Origin: Oculatellaceae cyanobacterium bins.114
GTDB taxonomy: Bacteria > Cyanobacteriota > Cyanobacteriia > Elainellales > Elainellaceae
Direction of reading: 5' to 3'
Length of the DNA: 22,389 nucleotides
Assembly (NCBI GenBank): GCA_033764315.1
Contig: JANRJA010000072.1
Coordinates: 1-22,389 of the forward strand
Shown: in pieces, positions 9,190-20,377 of the stretch
Numbering within the stretch: the first letter of the stretch is position 1
How the letters are laid out: each line of letters opens with the position of its first letter
Made by a program: the position numbers and the translations under genes
Notes under the pieces: generated by a model
What the model saw: the letters and a program-made list of their open reading frames with translations, nothing else
The model's database searches: none
What the model was told of the DNA's origin: nothing

Positions 9190-10341
9190 TCAAATAGAAA
9201 ACGTTAATTCTCTAGCCAATTTGTGGAATGTCTCTACCTTAGGTAGTCCAAGTAGTCTAAGTGCATCTCGGTAAGGAGTACGACCCTCTAAAGTGCTTTC
9301 AACCAATGCTCGAATAAACTGATGACTTAAGCGAGACAGTTGAGTTCGATAAAAGTCTCCCCCTCCTGTCTGCTGGCTAGTAGACTCTTGAAACCTTTCC
9401 TGTTCGATCTGATAGCGTTCCTGAAAAGTACTTGGAGAAATTAACTCACTATCACGCATTCGCCGCAAAATTACCAGGGAACTCACTTTAAATCGCTGGG
9501 TTAGGGTGTGTAACCAGTTATCTTGGGACGCCACTTCCGCCCATTGTGCCAGTAGCTCAGCAGATGGCACAAGTAACTCAGCAGCAACTTGGTTGCAAAA
9601 TTGCTCTACTCCATTGTGTTCAACATAGGTTTTGTCTAAATTAGACACCCCAGAAACACCAACCCAGATATGAACCAGTTCATGGGCTAAAGTGAACATC
9701 TGAGCTGCTTTAGTATCTCGTCCATTAATAAAGATAAGCGGTGCATAAGCATCAGATAAAGCAAAACCCCGAAACTCCTCTACAAAGAGTGGTCGATGAG
9801 TATTGTTACCAACAATACCCGTCCGCATGACTAGTACTCCTGTGTTTTCAATTTGCTCTATTTGCAGACGCAAAGCTTCTTCCCAGTTATGGGCACGTTG
9901 CCTGACATCAAAGCCAACGACCTGGCGAATGTGGTCAGCAGCTTCTAGCTCAGGCAAATTCTGTGACAGGCTATCTACAAACGGTAATGGCTCTCGTCCG
10001 CGAGTTATTAACTCTTCTCGAAACCAGCTCTGAATCTGCTGCGCTTGATCAAGAGTTGCTAACAAAGAAGGACTAGGATGGTTAATTTCCTCGTTGCCTA
10101 AAGTCCGGAAATCAGGAATTGGTAATAGTTCTTGAGGTGGTACAGGCAGGTATAGGTATCCAAAGGGAATGTGAGTCACTTTAGCCAGTTTTTCAGCCTG
10201 ATTGAAGCTTAGTTCCCCAGTTTCTTCCCAATCTACTACTTTTTCAGGTTTGACCTGTATTTTTTTTGCCAATGCTTCCACACTAAGCCCAGAGCGTTCA
10301 CGCGCCCAGCGCAAAATGGTAGGTTGCAGGCTAATGTTCAT
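9190..10341 (-). CDS. XRE HTH plus ImmA/IrrE-family (DUF955, COG2856) zinc metallopeptidase
   Basis: N-terminal HTH (LRWARERSGLSVEALAKK...VVDWEETG), PDFRT, FRGFAL, PLIFING, FTLAHELVH (HExxH), EQFCNQVAAELLVP and GGGDFY. Confidence 0.92.
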   Translation of the reverse strand: MNISLQPTILRWARERSGLSVEALAKKIQVKPEKVVDWEETGELSFNQAEKLAKVTHIPFGYLYLPVPPQELLPIPDFRTLGNEEINHPSPSLLATLDQAQQIQSWFREELITRGREPLPFVDSLSQNLPELEAADHIRQVVGFDVRQRAHNWEEALRLQIEQIENTGVLVMRTGIVGNNTHRPLFVEEFRGFALSDAYAPLIFINGRDTKAAQMFTLAHELVHIWVGVSGVSNLDKTYVEHNGVEQFCNQVAAELLVPSAELLAQWAEVASQDNWLHTLTQRFKVSSLVILRRMRDSELISPSTFQERYQIEQERFQESTSQQTGGGDFYRTQLSRLSHQFIRALVESTLEGRTPYRDALRLLGLPKVETFHKLARELTFSI

Positions 10342-10538
10342 GACTTGCGAATTATTTCAGCGAAATCCAAGAAGGTATCAGTATTCTAGTTCAAATGAAC
10401 CTAATATGTTATGGCTCTAAACTTTACTATAGCCAAACAGTATCGTGTGATTCAAACGACATAGAATTTGCTATTCCTGCTTGTCGTAATGCATTTTACG
10501 TAATCACCTTTGTCAGTTGTTTAACAACATCTCCTGAA

Positions 10539-11624
10539 TTATCTAGAATTTTCTAAGAACTTGCCGTTTGGGTCGATGTACTGCCATTGGCGATCGCGCT
10601 CGACCCAGGCAAACCCCTCCGAAAAAGAACCCACGCTTGTGAATTGGGGGGCGATCACAACTTCGCCTGTTTTGTTGATATAGCCAAAGGAATTGCCCAC
10701 CTTAACCGCTGCAAGCCCTTCTGAAAAGTCAGCCGCAAAGTCAAATTGGGGTTCAATGACCACAGTGCCTGTGCGATCGACATATCCCCATTTAGCCCCG
10801 ACTAAAACAGCCGCCAAGTCTTCTGAAAAGTCAGAGGCAAAGTCAAATTGAGGAGTAAAGGCAGGTTCACCCGTCTCGTTGATAAAGCCCCATTGACTGC
10901 CAATGCGAACTCTCGCCAACCCATCAGCAAAGCCAAAGGCTCCATCAAACTTAGGTTCAATGGCGATCGCCCCGGTTTTGTCTAAGTAACCCCATTTTGT
11001 GTTGACTTTCACGGCAGCCCGCTCTTCTGAAAAGCTCCAGGCATCTGCAAATCGAGGCTGAATCACCCATCGACCCGCTCGATCAATAAACCCATAGGCA
11101 TTATCAACTTTGACGGCGGCTAATCCATTTGAGAACTCAGCAGCCAGGTTAAATTGGGGTTCAATCACTAATTCCCCATCTGGGTTAATGTAACCGTAGC
11201 GATTGCCAGGGCGAACGGCAGCGAGTCCTTCTGAAAAAGGGGTAGCACTGGCATATTGAGGGGGCACAATCACTGCTCCCGTTCGATTGATGTACCCATA
11301 GACCTGGTTAACTCGCGTTAGTGCCATATCATCTGAAAAAGGGGCGATCGCTTCTAGCACTGGGTCAACAGCGATCGCTTCACTGCCAGTATGGTCAATA
11401 TAGAGATAGCGATCGCCTATCCGCACAGCGGCTAACCCCTCTGAAAAATCGGAGGCAAAATCAAACCGTAAAATCGAATCATCCATTCTCTGACTGTTGG
11501 TAGGCTGATGAGAGCGTTGGTGGAGTGTCATCAACTCAAGTGTCGGCTCCGAATGAATTGGCTGAACACAGGAGGTCAACGCCAAAGCGAGATAACCGAG
11601 CCACACTTGACGAATGTGTTTCAT
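10539..11624 (-). CDS. WG-repeat (KWG/WG_beta_rep) lipoprotein
   Basis: Lipobox-like LALTSC; about 9 repeats of F-S-E-G-L-A-x-V...W/Y-G-Y/F-I-D/N-x-x-G-x-x-V-I-x-P-x-F; ATG at 11624 preferred over GTG at 11630. Confidence 0.92.
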   Translation of the reverse strand: MKHIRQVWLGYLALALTSCVQPIHSEPTLELMTLHQRSHQPTNSQRMDDSILRFDFASDFSEGLAAVRIGDRYLYIDHTGSEAIAVDPVLEAIAPFSDDMALTRVNQVYGYINRTGAVIVPPQYASATPFSEGLAAVRPGNRYGYINPDGELVIEPQFNLAAEFSNGLAAVKVDNAYGFIDRAGRWVIQPRFADAWSFSEERAAVKVNTKWGYLDKTGAIAIEPKFDGAFGFADGLARVRIGSQWGFINETGEPAFTPQFDFASDFSEDLAAVLVGAKWGYVDRTGTVVIEPQFDFAADFSEGLAAVKVGNSFGYINKTGEVVIAPQFTSVGSFSEGFAWVERDRQWQYIDPNGKFLENSR

Positions 11625-11786
11625 ACACACCTTCTAGGAGAGAATAAACTGATTTGGTTCGGTCCAGCAATTGCAAAGCAGCTTCCTTAATGGGTAATCG
11701 CTACAATTTAGCTAGAATTTACCGAGTCTATGAGAAGACTTCATCGCCCTTTGGTGTCAACTTTAGACGAAGTAGCCGTCGTTCAT

Positions 11787-15804: not shown

Positions 15805-16452
15805 TTAATGAGTTTCTTGAACCCATGCTCGGAGCAGTTGTAGAGCTTTTACTAGCCCAATCGTGTCGCTTTGCTGAATAAATTGAATGATTTGAATGGC
15901 AGGTAAACCTGAAAAAAGCGCACTCTTGCCCTGTTCAATATAGCGATCGCCCTGGAGCTGATAGATCAGCAGGTTGCCATTCAACACGTCGTCTCCTGCC
16001 TGAGTAATATAACGCCACACTTCAGGAATGTTGAGATCGGCATAGAGTGATAACTTATCAAATGTGCTTTTGGTGATGACGATTTCAACGGCTAAATCAG
16101 GGGAAGCATCTTGAGTCAAATCAGCTAGATGTCGGTTGTCAGGAACGGGGTAGCGCACATAGTAGCCCCCATCCACTTCTACTGCACAACCTCGATGGTC
16201 TGCTTTGAGTAATAGAGGGAGACAAGATTCAATGGAGAGGTCTAACTCATCGGCTAACAGCAAAATTAGAGATTCGATCAGCTTGTTGCAGCGATCGCGC
16301 TCAGGGAGTGGAGTCAGCATCTCTAGCTTGCCGCGATCATAGGTGAGGCGGGCAATGCGCTCTTGTCCCAGTTCGGCTAACAAGGCTTCAAATTTTTGCC
16401 AACTCACATTGGAAAGGAGAACAGGTTGTTCGGTTTGAGTCGGTTTTTTCAT
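15805..16452 (-). CDS. Uma2-family (DUF820) endonuclease-fold protein
   Basis: VLLSNVSWQKFEALL, RLTYDRGKLEMLTP, PDLAVEIVIT and KLSLYADLNIPEVWRY; ATG at 16452 overlaps the upstream TGA (ATGA). Confidence 0.9.
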   Translation of the reverse strand: MKKPTQTEQPVLLSNVSWQKFEALLAELGQERIARLTYDRGKLEMLTPLPERDRCNKLIESLILLLADELDLSIESCLPLLLKADHRGCAVEVDGGYYVRYPVPDNRHLADLTQDASPDLAVEIVITKSTFDKLSLYADLNIPEVWRYITQAGDDVLNGNLLIYQLQGDRYIEQGKSALFSGLPAIQIIQFIQQSDTIGLVKALQLLRAWVQETH

Positions 16453-18218
16453 GACTCGTTCTCTTGCACCACGAGAGGAACAGAACACTGAATGCAGGTC
16501 ACAGTTGCTTCAGTTGCAGCGTCGGTTGGAATGGCTAATAGCTCTAGCTGTCCGCCCATCAGTTCTAATAGGGTCTGATTGATCAACAACATAAACTCTG
16601 GAGAGAATCTAATTGGAGTCGGTTTGTTAGTTGCAGTGGCGATCGCCTCTTTTAAGTGAGCAAAAGGAGTGGACTCTGGCGATCGGGGAGACTGCAACAG
16701 GTGAATTGGCTCACTCCAATGATGGGGAGGACGTTCATCCTCAATTTGAATCAGCACGCGATCGCCCTCAGGGGAAACTTGAGTGGTGACGCGCACCGTG
16801 CCCTCTTGCATCAACGACAACGGCGTGTCGATCAGACTGAGCAAGATTTGATGTAACCAGCGTGGATCAGAAGACACATACAAATCCGGGTGAGGTAACT
16901 CAACCTCAAGCCGCAGACTGCGATTTTGTGCCTGCAATTGGGTTAGCCGTTGCACCTCCTCTAAAATCATAGCGAGTTGCAAGGGCTGTAATTGAAACTG
17001 TTCGGTGCCGTACTCGGTTTTAGAAACCCGAATCACCTCATCCAACAAACGCAACATCTTTTGAGCGGCAGTGTGGGCTTGAGCGATAAAATCACGCTCT
17101 TCTTCGGGGCTATCGCACAGATCTGCCAGGATCAGTTGATGCAAACTAATGACACTGTTGAGGGGCGATCGCAACTCGTGTGAGGTGCGTGCTAGAAATC
17201 CTGCCTTAAACTGGCTGATCTCAGACGCCATGACATAGGCTAGCTGAGTCTGTTGCAACTGATTAACGGATTGAGACTGGTCAACCGAGTTGGTTTGCGG
17301 TGACACAGAGGAGTGATCGTCAACAATTTGCCATGCCAGTTTTGCCGCACCGACAATGCCAGCGTGGTTGCCTAACTCGGCTGTGAGCAACTGCAAGCCA
17401 TCACGAGAACTGGGCAGCACCCGTCGCTCAATTTCAGCTTGCATGGATGAAAAAAAGAACTCAGCACTGGCACTGACACCGCCCCCAATGAGCACCGCTT
17501 CTGGGGTGAGGACATAAATTAAGCTGGCGAGTCCTGCGCCCAACTCACATCCATAGGTCTGCCAAAAGGCGATCGCCTCTGCATCTCCTGCTTTGGCTTT
17601 GGTGCCCAATACTTCTGGCTCTAGCCCAGTACGACGGCGAATCGCCTGCACCGAGACATGTTGCTCAAGGGAACCATCGTTGCCACTATTGCAGCTAGGG
17701 CCTGCATAGTCGAGCGTAATCAACCCCAATTCACCTGCGGTGCCATCGCGCCCCGTAAAGAGTTTGCCGTTTAAAATAATGGCTCCTCCCACCCCAGTCC
17801 CCAGAGTTAGCAAAATTAAATTTTCAAACCGTCGTCCTGCGCCCAACCAATATTCACCCAAACCAGCACAATTGGCGTCGTTGGCTAACAAAGTGGGCTT
17901 ACCTGTTTTTGCTTCTAACCAATCTGCCAGAGGAACATCTTTCCAACCTAAGTTAATCGCGACTCTGGCAATTCGTCCCGTAACATCGGCAGGGCCAGGA
18001 GTGCCTACGCCAATCGCCAAACTCTGATTATCTGGGTCTAGTTGGGCGATCGCTGCCACCATCGCAGCTAACACGGCTTCCGGTTCAGATGGCTGCGGAG
18101 TGGGAACACTAAGAGACTGTAAACACTGCCCAGTTCGATCAAACCGTCCCAGCTTGATCGCGGTTCCTCCCAAATCAATGCCAACTACAAATTGCCCAGT
18201 CGCTCCCTCAGGATACAT
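16449..18218 (-). CDS. ROK-family sugar kinase fused to HisKA and a degenerate HATPase domain
   Basis: ROK motifs GIDLGGT, ANDANCAGLGE, LTLGTGVGG, GELG...CNSGNDGSLEQ and GIVGAA; then FLARTSHELRSPLN H-box; a single uninterrupted frame. The ORF track starts at 18251, but ATG 18218 has GAGG upstream. Confidence 0.88.
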   Translation of the reverse strand: MYPEGATGQFVVGIDLGGTAIKLGRFDRTGQCLQSLSVPTPQPSEPEAVLAAMVAAIAQLDPDNQSLAIGVGTPGPADVTGRIARVAINLGWKDVPLADWLEAKTGKPTLLANDANCAGLGEYWLGAGRRFENLILLTLGTGVGGAIILNGKLFTGRDGTAGELGLITLDYAGPSCNSGNDGSLEQHVSVQAIRRRTGLEPEVLGTKAKAGDAEAIAFWQTYGCELGAGLASLIYVLTPEAVLIGGGVSASAEFFFSSMQAEIERRVLPSSRDGLQLLTAELGNHAGIVGAAKLAWQIVDDHSSVSPQTNSVDQSQSVNQLQQTQLAYVMASEISQFKAGFLARTSHELRSPLNSVISLHQLILADLCDSPEEERDFIAQAHTAAQKMLRLLDEVIRVSKTEYGTEQFQLQPLQLAMILEEVQRLTQLQAQNRSLRLEVELPHPDLYVSSDPRWLHQILLSLIDTPLSLMQEGTVRVTTQVSPEGDRVLIQIEDERPPHHWSEPIHLLQSPRSPESTPFAHLKEAIATATNKPTPIRFSPEFMLLINQTLLELMGGQLELLAIPTDAATEATVTCIQCSVPLVVQENES

Positions 18219-18815
18219 AGCCGTCCTCATTTCCCACTGCTGCCAGTTCATTATAGGGGTGGCCGTACGCTACGTCTCTAGGTAGATGAATAGCCATCTC
18301 AAATCATTGATAAGAAAGGGGGTTGTGAAATCTCTGGTTTGCAGAATGGGAACTCTTATAAATAGCCCTGAAGTTGTCATGCATTGATGTTAACGACTAA
18401 CGCCTAAAGAGGGTTTATCAGTAATGATAGTTACCCAACATTGATATAGGGTTCTTCTGTGATGATCTTTTAGTCTTGAATGAAATAGTTTCATCTCGCT
18501 TTTATAAAGCCATAGGCGATCGCTTGATTAAAGAAAAACCTGTTATCCTTCAGGCTCCTAAAAGACGAACAAATGTGTTCTAATACACCATTTTTATAGT
18601 AGAAAAACATGGATTTACCCTTAACAACATCTGAGCACTTTAATAAAAATTTGGTAAACCTTAAAAGCTTTAAAGGCATCACTAAATTTTTAGGCTAGAC
18701 TGTGACCGAGTCTTGATGATCTGGGTTGGGCTGCAACTAACAGAGTAAATAGAATCTATCTAAAATTCATTCATTTGAAATGCTGTGGATTATCTAGTTT
18801 GCGTAGCTTTCTATA

Positions 18816-19766
18816 ATGTGGATATCTAACATGACACATCCCTTTCAGCACATTTTAATTACACGCATGAATGTGGAATGGAACATCTCCAGACCTGTCG
18901 AAGAACGAAATAATCTAGACTTTTTAAGCTATAGGTTTAATATTTTTGAGAAAACGTGTTTTCCATCTGTAAATGCTCAAAGCAACAAAAATTTCGTCTG
19001 GTTGTTATTACTTGACTCAAAGTTGCCCGATGAATTTAGAAAGAGAGTCGAGCAATATACTTCAACTCCTCAATTGATCCCGGTTTATATCGAAAACAAG
19101 GACACGTTTCTAGATCAACTCAAACAAGCTATTAATACCCATCTCTCAGCATCAACCACCCATCTCATGACAACTAATCTGGACAGTGATGATGCAATAT
19201 CTAAAGACTTTGTTGCAACTATTCAAGAGCAATTTAAAGGTCAGGATTTTGAATTCATCAACTTTCCTTTTGGCTTTATGTATCGCTTTGTTGATGAAAA
19301 GTTATATCTCCGTGATTGGTTAACAGCCCCCTGTCACACACTAATTGAGCAGCGAGACAATTTTGAAACAGCGAGCAACTATAAGCACGATACGATTACT
19401 AAATACAAGACGCGTCAAATTCCCACAAAACCCATGTGGTTAATGACGGTGCATGGCAAAAATGTCAGAACTAAATTTGATGTCAACGCTGCATGGCAAC
19501 CCACTCAGCGACTGACTCATGATTTTGATATTCGCTTTGACTTGCCTCACACGAGTTATTTGAAGACCCTAAACGAAATCTTTGCAGCCGTCATCACAGT
19601 CATTACAAGCCAACGAGACTGGGACAGCCCATCCGTTAAATTTAAGAAGGTTGCCAACATCTTATCCCCAGCAATCATGCGATCGCTCCGGCAGGCTCAG
19701 ATGGTGATCCAAAAGCTAGCTCATTCTTTTCAAAAAAGCTCTCTCAAAAATACGGTGGTTGAGTAA
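18816..19766 (+). CDS. Glycosyltransferase, putative rhamnosyl-transferase family (GT-A fold)
   Basis: FQHILITRMNV, RFNIFEKTCFPSVNAQSNKNFVWLLLLD, TTNLDSDDAI (DxDD) and VHGKN. Confidence 0.8.
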   Translation: MWISNMTHPFQHILITRMNVEWNISRPVEERNNLDFLSYRFNIFEKTCFPSVNAQSNKNFVWLLLLDSKLPDEFRKRVEQYTSTPQLIPVYIENKDTFLDQLKQAINTHLSASTTHLMTTNLDSDDAISKDFVATIQEQFKGQDFEFINFPFGFMYRFVDEKLYLRDWLTAPCHTLIEQRDNFETASNYKHDTITKYKTRQIPTKPMWLMTVHGKNVRTKFDVNAAWQPTQRLTHDFDIRFDLPHTSYLKTLNEIFAAVITVITSQRDWDSPSVKFKKVANILSPAIMRSLRQAQMVIQKLAHSFQKSSLKNTVVE

Positions 19767-19798
19767 TATCTCTCACCCATTTTGACCAAAATAATTTC

Positions 19799-20377
19799 TT
19801 AAAAAGATGAGCCTGGTTGTTTGAGAAATTCAATTTCTTCTGGGGTTGAAGGGCGATTTAAGATCACATTGCGATGGGGAAACCGCCCAAATCGCTGAAT
19901 GACAGTTTGATGACGAATCGCATACTCTAATCCATCCTGTAGTTCAGAGTAATCAAGCACTAGAGCTTGATATAGAGCAACAGCTTGGTTTTGATCTGCC
20001 AGATGTTCACTGTGTTCAAGTGGCAGATAAAAAAAGAATCGCTGTACGGGTTCGAGTTGTTGGTCAAACCCCTGAGCGATCGCCCCTTTTGCAATGATTT
20101 GAGCTTGAGGGTCAGTGGCAAACGCTCTAGGCTGACCCCGAAACATGTTTCGAGAGAACTGATCAAGCAGTAACACCAACGCCAAGCAACTGCGAGGGGA
20201 GGTTTGCCACGCTCCCAACTCGCCTGAGGCAGCTTGCTCGTAAGCAGACAGGAAGCGATCGCGCAACAGTTGGTCAAAAGCTGGATTTTTTGAGAACCAC
20301 AGTTTTCGGCGTTGACTATAGGTTTCGACCGGATTGCCAAACCAGACCTCTAAAATCTCGTCAACTGACGCCGCCAT
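19799..20377 (-). CDS. DUF924-family protein
   Basis: ILEVWFG, WFSKNPAFD, LALVLLLDQFSRNMFRG, FFYLPLEHSE and IQRFGRFPHRNVILNRPSTPEE. Confidence 0.93.
   Translation of the reverse strand: MAASVDEILEVWFGNPVETYSQRRKLWFSKNPAFDQLLRDRFLSAYEQAASGELGAWQTSPRSCLALVLLLDQFSRNMFRGQPRAFATDPQAQIIAKGAIAQGFDQQLEPVQRFFFYLPLEHSEHLADQNQAVALYQALVLDYSELQDGLEYAIRHQTVIQRFGRFPHRNVILNRPSTPEEIEFLKQPGSSF

Follow-up and report, generated by a model that had tools for sequence, protein, structure and literature searches.

What does a histidine-kinase-like module without recognizable ATP-binding motifs do when it is joined, in a single reading frame, to a sugar-kinase-type domain of the ROK family? The question is raised by a gene of Oculatellaceae cyanobacterium bins.114 (GenBank assembly GCA_033764315.1), which lies on contig JANRJA010000072.1 in a window of 22,389 nucleotides (nt), the whole stretch of DNA analysed here. 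The gene is a true fusion, which some members of a single cyanobacterial family share. With modest confidence, we favour the view that its product is a non-autophosphorylating transmitter that is tethered to the ROK sugar-kinase-type domain and acts via a partner. The gene and the putative ribosome-binding signal before it are:

16449..18218, minus strand: fused ROK and kinase-like coding sequence, 589 amino acids from the ATG at 18218
18224..18228, minus strand: GAGGA, Shine-Dalgarno-like, 5 nt before the ATG at 18218, read directly

The open frame is uninterrupted and extends upstream to an ATG at 18251 (16449..18251, 600 amino acids), from which all residue numbers are counted here. The start at 18218, which is Met12 of this long frame, is the likely one because homologues begin there, the database copy P0002 has 589 amino acids and GAGGA stands upstream. 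A sequence-only reading, made by a model without database searches, had placed the gene at 16449..18218; these coordinates fit the 589-amino-acid start, and the strand, which it did not state, is minus. Pfam finds only ROK (residues 23-307) and HisKA (residues 350-414) in the protein, even at E<=1, and both lie in the one open frame, as that reading had proposed. The ROK match (PF00480) has an E-value of 1.4e-60 and 205.8 bits against a cut-off of 22.9, and is found likewise by a profile search of the genome; the HisKA match has an E-value of 4.8e-11 and 43 bits against a cut-off of 26.9. These E-values and the conservation described below rule out chance. That two genes were misjoined in assembly, or that the frame is a decaying remnant, is scarcely credible: nothing speaking for it was found (no DNA or RNA sequencing run was listed), the frame is intact, the fusion recurs in independent assemblies that include the single-contig genomes G017 and G346, genome G326 of the same genus carries it at 87% identity, and functional motifs are conserved in both halves.

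Within its own genome (G000, assembly 90.7% complete) the fused gene is the sole PF00480 match and the sole orthologue of the kinase-like gene. The next-best kinase-like match there is 32% identical (3e-26), the closest DHp paralogues, at G000:C187:7279-7812, C87:19228-19785 and C154:5162-5770, being 30-32% identical, and a separate PF02685 glucokinase is encoded elsewhere in the genome. Hydropathy in 19-residue windows peaks at 1.74 (residues 237-255), within the ROK core, which is folded with confidence in the structural model; a transmembrane helix is therefore not indicated, in agreement with the sequence-only reading.

The kinase-like half combines a conserved phospho-acceptor site with a degenerate ATPase-like domain. 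Its parts are:

17013..17273, minus strand: DHp/HisKA helical hairpin, residues 327-413, from Pfam HisKA and the AlphaFold (AF2) model
17178..17180, minus strand: phospho-acceptor His358 in the H-box SHELRSPLN (SHELRSP at 17163..17183)
16467..16994, minus strand: degenerate catalytic/ATP-binding-like domain, residues 420-595, from AF2 and Foldseek
16818..16844, minus strand: N-box remnant LLSLIDTPL, Thr476 aligned to the N-box Asn of RetS
16725..16745, minus strand: G1-box remnant IEDERPP, Asp505 invariant, glycines gone
16584..16604, minus strand: G2-box remnant SPEFMLL, family consensus SPGLxLL

The H-box core, H-E-[LV]-R-[SA]-P, is present in 76/76 family members (36 fused and 40 stand-alone), and the residue preceding the His is Ala, not Ser, in 10 of the 36 fused rows. 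The ATP-binding boxes of histidine kinases comprise the N-box Asn, a G1 box DxGxG and a G2 box GxGxG. None of the 46 rows aligned (25 fused ones and 21 others) has the N-box Asn or the glycines of G1 and G2. HATPase_c has no Pfam match in the fused protein at E<=1, and a precomputed PF02518 match exists for none of the 36 fused clusters and for two of the 40 stand-alone clusters. Both the intact H-box and the degenerate ATPase domain had been recognized in the sequence-only reading, and the motifs it quoted (SHELRSP with its His, LLSLIDTPL and IEDERPP) were all located at the positions it gave. The alignment of stand-alone kinase-like proteins took in 20 of the 40 listed orthologues, and since all 20 carry the same degenerate domain, the degeneracy, judged by these sequences, did not arise with the fusion.

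AF2 models, which were built with family alignments, show a confident ROK fold, a DHp hairpin of two helices (residues 327-376 and 382-413) and an alpha/beta domain whose core has a predicted local distance difference test score (pLDDT) of about 90; the region equivalent to the ATP lid (residues 524-549) is of low confidence. With the C-terminal half as query, Foldseek retrieves whole histidine-kinase cores, with GacS at the top (2.7e-14) and RetS at 4e-13 (template-modelling score 0.72). Kinase-region chains of RetS are also the best matches of this half in a sequence search of the PDB (7n0e_B at 1.3e-18, then 6dk7_A and 6dk8_A).

In GacS, according to the part of the published study used here (PMC8498467), Gly-to-Ala changes at two G2 glycines alone abolish ATP binding. 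Because the boxes are lost in the fused protein, and G2 glycine changes by themselves stop ATP binding in GacS, canonical autophosphorylation by the kinase half appears unlikely. We therefore regard as improbable the alternative that the protein is a true sugar-sensing histidine kinase, whose divergent ATPase domain would bind ATP in a non-canonical way and autophosphorylate His358. It could account for the invariance of His358, Glu359 and Asp505, for an ATPase-like fold that is intact and confidently predicted, and for the weak HATPase_c signal in a few stand-alone members, namely the two clusters mentioned above and the stand-alone gene of locus L041 (26.0 bits against a cut-off of 26.4). 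It has to contend with the missing N-box Asn and glycines in 46/46 aligned rows, with the low-confidence ATP-lid region and with the GacS result.

The ROK half and the linker that follows it comprise:

17331..18185, minus strand: ROK domain, residues 23-307, Pfam PF00480, AF2 pLDDT mostly 80-97
17661..17732, minus strand: former zinc-motif region, residues 174-197, ELGL...CNSGNDGSLEQ, pLDDT dipping to about 57
17274..17330, minus strand: Ser/Gln-rich linker, residues 308-326, length varying across the family

ROK kinases carry the motifs DxGxT, NDAN with the catalytic Asp, and GTGxGG. The fused protein retains DLGGT (residues 26-30), ANDANCAG (123-130), LTLGTGVGGA (148-157) and GGGVSAS, and the ATP-binding and catalytic motifs show little or no variation in an alignment of 25 fused and 17 ROK rows. 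ROK glucokinases are the best matches of the N-terminal half in the PDB sequence search (8e-45). The zinc signature GH...CxCGxxGCxE is not present: where the Streptomyces griseus glucokinase (3vgk) reads AEFGHI...CGCGSQGCWEQ, the fused protein reads GELGLI...CNSGNDGSLEQ, with Leu177 in the place of the His and Ser at two of the three Cys positions. This substitute sequence is itself conserved in 25/25 fused proteins and 16/16 aligned stand-alone cyanobacterial ROK orthologues, so the loss of the zinc motif is a feature of the clade and not decay. The ROK domain that had been called complete is thus confirmed in its profile match and catalytic motifs and is not fully canonical in its zinc site. 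Synechocystis slr0329 may belong to this zinc-less clade. Published experiments on it, the only bench results found that may bear on the clade, indicate that slr0329 is not the main glucose-phosphorylating enzyme of Synechocystis. The passages of PMC12696579 that were consulted treat cyanobacterial glucokinases as being of a non-ROK type and do not mention the zinc-less ROK clade.

On the evidence of sequence identity, each half is orthologous to a gene that other cyanobacteria carry separately. Identity between the ROK half and stand-alone ROK genes reaches 77-80%, and residues ~320-597 are 45-62% identical to stand-alone genes of ~280-350 amino acids (E-values of 7.5e-49 to 5.4e-95, paralogues reaching ~1e-26). 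In a survey of 301 genomes of the phylum, the fusion was found only in this genome (G000) and in G017. The survey lists 126 genomes of the same class individually, and gives the second match for 35 of them. Of the 126, 116 yield one match or more; in 113 the best match has an E-value of 1.9e-94 or lower, and all listed matches at that level belong to the ROK half. Two matches occur in 81 of the 126, and the kinase-like gene is the second match in 35/35 of those listed. Among these 35 listed pairs, all outside the family, the second gene is on another contig in 25 cases and at a distance of 110 kb to 4.3 Mb in the other 10, and in none of the 35 are the ROK and kinase-like genes adjacent. Some genomes of the survey carry ROK without the pseudo-kinase.

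This distribution bears on a further alternative, in which the ROK domain replaces the dead ATPase domain as the phosphoryl source for His358, either directly or via its sugar-phosphate product. Its ATP-binding and catalytic motifs are complete, and a flexible tether places it beside a DHp with His and Glu and no working ATPase domain. We nevertheless give this idea very little credence, because the stand-alone pseudo-kinase exists with ROK far away and ROK occurs without the pseudo-kinase, and we know of no precedent for a ROK protein as phosphoryl donor to a DHp His.

Within its order the fusion is well established. A further 35 protein clusters (P0003-P0037), 55-86% identical to the fused protein, combine ROK with HisKA. 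We sampled 57 genomes of the order, all of one family and representing 25 genera. The fusion is present in 18 of them and in 9 of the genera, including the single-contig genomes G017 and G346; two of the 18 are cut by contig ends, and in G348 the two matches lie within one frame of 606 amino acids. The two genes are adjacent and unfused in three genomes (G333, G335 and G343), 2 kb apart with one gene between in one, and on different contigs or far apart in 24. One half only was found in eight genomes, mostly incomplete assemblies, and neither half in three. Halves that are split elsewhere and a fusion that is conserved in a clade are thus both found. The suggestion that the fusion arose from two normally adjacent genes fares less well: 0/35 pairs outside the family are adjacent, and the adjacency it supposed is seen in the three family genomes.

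At 50% clustering of 1.84 billion proteins, the fused family forms one representative. No independent fusion of ROK to a kinase was found among the best 150 matches of the search of representatives. Seven candidates for such fusions (P0127, P0149, P0164, P0186, P0236, P0253 and P0265) were rejected because they are without HisKA; they are ROK-ROK tandems or ROK proteins with an unassigned N-terminal extension. A protein of 7883 amino acids (P0123) contains 48 stretches that match query residues 15-100, the first part of ROK, at 34% identity, and could be a protein built of repeats or an error of gene calling. In a tree of the kinase half with all 76 rows, the fused rows form three to five groups, the backbone itself being unresolved, and fused and stand-alone rows are intermixed. 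Forcing all 36 fused rows into one clade gives a log-likelihood 3.48 better and is not rejected (approximately unbiased test, p = 0.578). A single origin of the fusion is compatible with these results, not proven by them.

The stand-alone relatives suggest how the fusion came about. The stand-alone kinase-like protein starts with a conserved segment, MxWTNxxxLxxGLGxGxxxxW, that is hydrophobic and rich in glycine and is a probable membrane anchor; basic residues and a variable spacer come next. In the fused protein, ROK stands in place of the anchor segment. A protein of 435 amino acids (P0247), in which a CDP-alcohol phosphatidyltransferase, an integral membrane enzyme, is joined to HisKA and a weak HATPase_c match, is 44% identical to the C-terminal half of the fused protein and presents a second replacement of the N-terminus in the kinase-like family; it fits a membrane-associated ancestral state of that family.

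Stand-alone kinase-like genes occur in a constant order, with genes for a Tic22-like protein, a PrmC-like methyltransferase and Sua5/TsaC, then the kinase-like gene and a convergent GNAT gene. This order was found in 7/7 loci scanned (L041-L045, L048 and L049; e.g. L042:4972-9301), of nine retrieved. The convergent GNAT acetyltransferase has a weak RimI-like match. The gap between Sua5 and the kinase-like gene is 28-300 nt (28-36 nt in three loci), and because it is small, co-transcription of the kinase-like gene with these translation-related genes is possible. In the fused genomes G000 and G017 another gene follows Sua5 instead of the kinase-like gene. In G000 (L050:2270-3580, G000:C193) these positions hold a convergent RsbW-like HATPase_c_2 protein and a SpoIIE-type phosphatase, and in G017 a CHAD-domain protein.

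Stand-alone ROK genes follow a permease of the OppC/NikC type, a component of ATP-binding cassette (ABC) transporters, in 4 of 9 loci and face CTP synthase in 7 of 9. An OppC-type permease still precedes ROK in five of the six family loci examined. The permease that still stands before ROK and the changed neighbour of Sua5 thus indicate that the kinase-like gene was relocated to the ROK locus, with loss of its N-terminal segment. Genomes that may represent intermediates are G343, where the kinase-like gene begins 230 nt after ROK and has the anchor, and G333 and G335, where it begins 34-37 nt after ROK and has none; the latter two could alternatively be secondary splits, and in the kinase-half tree this pair groups with fused rows, at only 82% in the Shimodaira-Hasegawa-like approximate likelihood ratio test (SH-aLRT). 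Permeases of the OppC/NikC/DppC type, which are not of a sugar type, directly precede the zinc-less ROK gene in loci L016, L031, L034, L024, L040, L052, L053, L055 and L057. That this neighbour could point to a ROK substrate that is peptide-linked or an amino sugar, for example a product of cell-wall recycling, is pure speculation.

How might the two halves work together? In the mechanism that we favour, the kinase-like half would first of all be unable to autophosphorylate in the canonical way. His358 would still take part in phosphoryl chemistry via a partner, or would mimic the DHp of a kinase towards that partner, since His358 and Glu359 are strictly constrained. The partner could be reached by DHp pairing with a true kinase in the manner of RetS and GacS, by phosphorylation in trans, or by action on a response regulator. 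The ROK domain would provide input or location, and sugar- or ATP-dependent closure or dimerization would alter the tethered transmitter. Coupling by tethering or oligomerization, driven by the dimer, would be more likely than coupling through a rigid signalling helix, because the linker is variable and predicted to be unstructured: residues 315-326 have no secondary structure in the AF2 model. The Ser/Gln-rich linker itself lies where the sequence-only reading had described one. Two signals from genomic context link the halves, the fusion itself and the unfused adjacency in G333, G335 and G343.

Several observations weigh against this mechanism. The phosphatase motif of HisKA proteins has Thr or Asn at the fourth position after the His. 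Because the family has Ser there in 74/76 members and Ala in 2/76, phosphatase activity is uncertain. Asp505 is the adenine-contacting Asp of G1, and its invariance leaves a small doubt, as some nucleotide binding may be possible. In the ROK half, the score for the glucokinase subfamily ROK_glcA_fam (NCBIfam TIGR00744) is 200.9 bits, below the cut-off of 260.35, and the sugar- and zinc-binding His of ROK is Leu. Hydropathy reaches 1.6 in 12 of the 40 stand-alone kinase-like proteins, which lends the proposed anchor weak support. Neither here nor in the related loci examined does a response regulator lie next to the fused gene, and a partner kinase is not conserved beside it either. Among the 36 fused proteins, 36 to 83 residues separate the end of ROK from the His, and a linker that is variable and predicted to be disordered argues against tight allosteric coupling and would fit two independent activities equally.

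Such independence is the content of another alternative, a bifunctional protein without signalling between its halves, in which fusion would serve only co-expression or co-localization. Besides the linker, it is consistent with the ancestral motifs that both halves keep almost unchanged, with the unlinked genes of most cyanobacteria and with the anchor-less unfused kinase-like gene of G349, G333 and G335. It is less easily reconciled with fusion and operon-like adjacency in one family, and with a fusion kept in nine genera down to 55-58% identity, a context that is usually read as a sign of a functional link. We consider the bifunctional protein unlikely, though it deserves serious attention. 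A prediction of the complex of the ROK domain with two copies of the DHp-ATPase-like half gave a score of 0.00, in runs without controls, and favours neither side.

The transmitter tethered to ROK, which remains our preferred interpretation, would matter beyond this genome. The zinc-less ROK and the degenerate kinase-like families are widespread in cyanobacteria and have no established role. The fusion in nine genera and the operon-like adjacency in sister genomes are a testable hint of joint action, and suggest that two widespread cyanobacterial genes work together. The fused form is moreover a soluble protein in which phosphotransfer by a kinase module without ATP-binding motifs can be probed. 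A bolder proposal extends this to a pair that operates throughout the cyanobacteria, with the zinc-less ROK as the missing input of a sensor-less, ATP-blind kinase-like protein, feeding sugar or amino-sugar status via the conserved His into the two-component network. We think it rather improbable in this general form; if true, the kinase-like protein would pair with an active kinase in the manner of RetS or, in the most daring version, receive its phosphoryl group from ROK.

The surroundings of the fused gene include one further feature of its own:

16449..16452, minus strand: ATGA, in which the stop (TGA) of the fused gene and the ATG of the downstream Uma2-family gene (MKKPTQ...) overlap

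This Uma2-family gene (PF05685, putative restriction endonuclease; 15805-16452, minus strand) shares the four nucleotides with the fused gene, and the overlap suggests translational coupling of the two. Uma2 genes are frequent in cyanobacteria, and another lies near the stand-alone kinase-like gene of locus L043. In genome G348 (L057:1-1011), a convergent gene directly downstream of the fused gene encodes a canonical kinase with HisKA and HATPase_c (91.6 bits for HATPase_c); it is not conserved in G017 or G000. On the upstream side, a low-GC stretch at ~18000-19800 of the window (0.36-0.41 against ~0.48 around it) contains a divergent gene for a putative rhamnosyl transferase (PF11316, 18816-19766). 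This stretch occupies the position that the OppC-type permease has upstream of ROK in related genomes, and an insertion may have broken the linkage of permease and ROK in this genome. Farther away, at 9190-11630 on the minus strand, a gene for a helix-turn-helix and Peptidase_M78 (IrrE/ImmA-like) protein lies beside one for a protein with eight WG_beta_rep repeats; this pair has no relation to the fused gene. A search of the window against Rfam gave no match, promoter-like sites in the window are not more frequent than in shuffled sequences, and terminator-like sites are absent from it.

Both parts of the protein come from known families, and it is their combination that appears new. As far as the literature was searched, neither a two-component transmitter with ROK at its N-terminus nor the stand-alone degenerate kinase-like family appears to have been described. 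Databases label the fused protein "ROK family protein" or "glucokinase". The stand-alone cyanobacterial HisKA-only proteins, named "HAMP domain-containing" or "sensor histidine kinase" in databases, share with it the H-box and the degenerate N, G1 and G2 boxes, and differ in their hydrophobic N-terminus and their position after Sua5/TsaC, neither of which the fused protein has.

Among systems outside this group, RetS and GacS of Pseudomonas aeruginosa (6dk7, 6dk8, 7n0e and 7z8n) are the nearest solved relatives of the kinase half in both sequence and fold, and have the H-box type FLAxxSHExRxPxN in common with it. In the portion of PMC8498467 used here, the RetS kinase region contacts the DHp of GacS, swaps the homodimer interface for a RetS-GacS one and blocks trans-autophosphorylation. 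RetS is a hybrid kinase of the membrane whose sensor is periplasmic and which carries two receiver domains, whereas the fused protein, which terminates after its ATPase-like domain, has no receiver and its only sensor would be ROK. RetS also keeps the N-box Asn, and the fused protein is the more degenerate of the two. RetS is thus the best available model of how the fused protein might act; because the fused protein lacks the RetS sensor and receivers, and identity is only ~22-26%, this is not a claim of membership.

DivL of Caulobacter (4q20) is also among the matches of the kinase half (1.1e-08 in sequence, 1.6e-10 in fold). This kinase-like protein signals via partner binding rather than autophosphorylation, with Tyr in place of the phospho-acceptor His, which in the fused family is invariant. 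For the ROK half, the glucokinases of S. griseus (Glk, 3vgk) and Enterococcus (2qm1) share DxGGT, NDAN, GTGxGG and two sugar-binding Glu residues with the fused protein, and have a zinc site of one His and three Cys where the latter has Leu, one Cys and two Ser. Regulators of the Mlc/NagC type provide the other comparison, as they place a ROK domain on an output module and let sugar binding control regulation. Their output is an N-terminal DNA-binding domain and their ROK domain is not a kinase, whereas in the fused protein the output would be a C-terminal two-component transmitter, and the catalytic motifs of ROK are kept.

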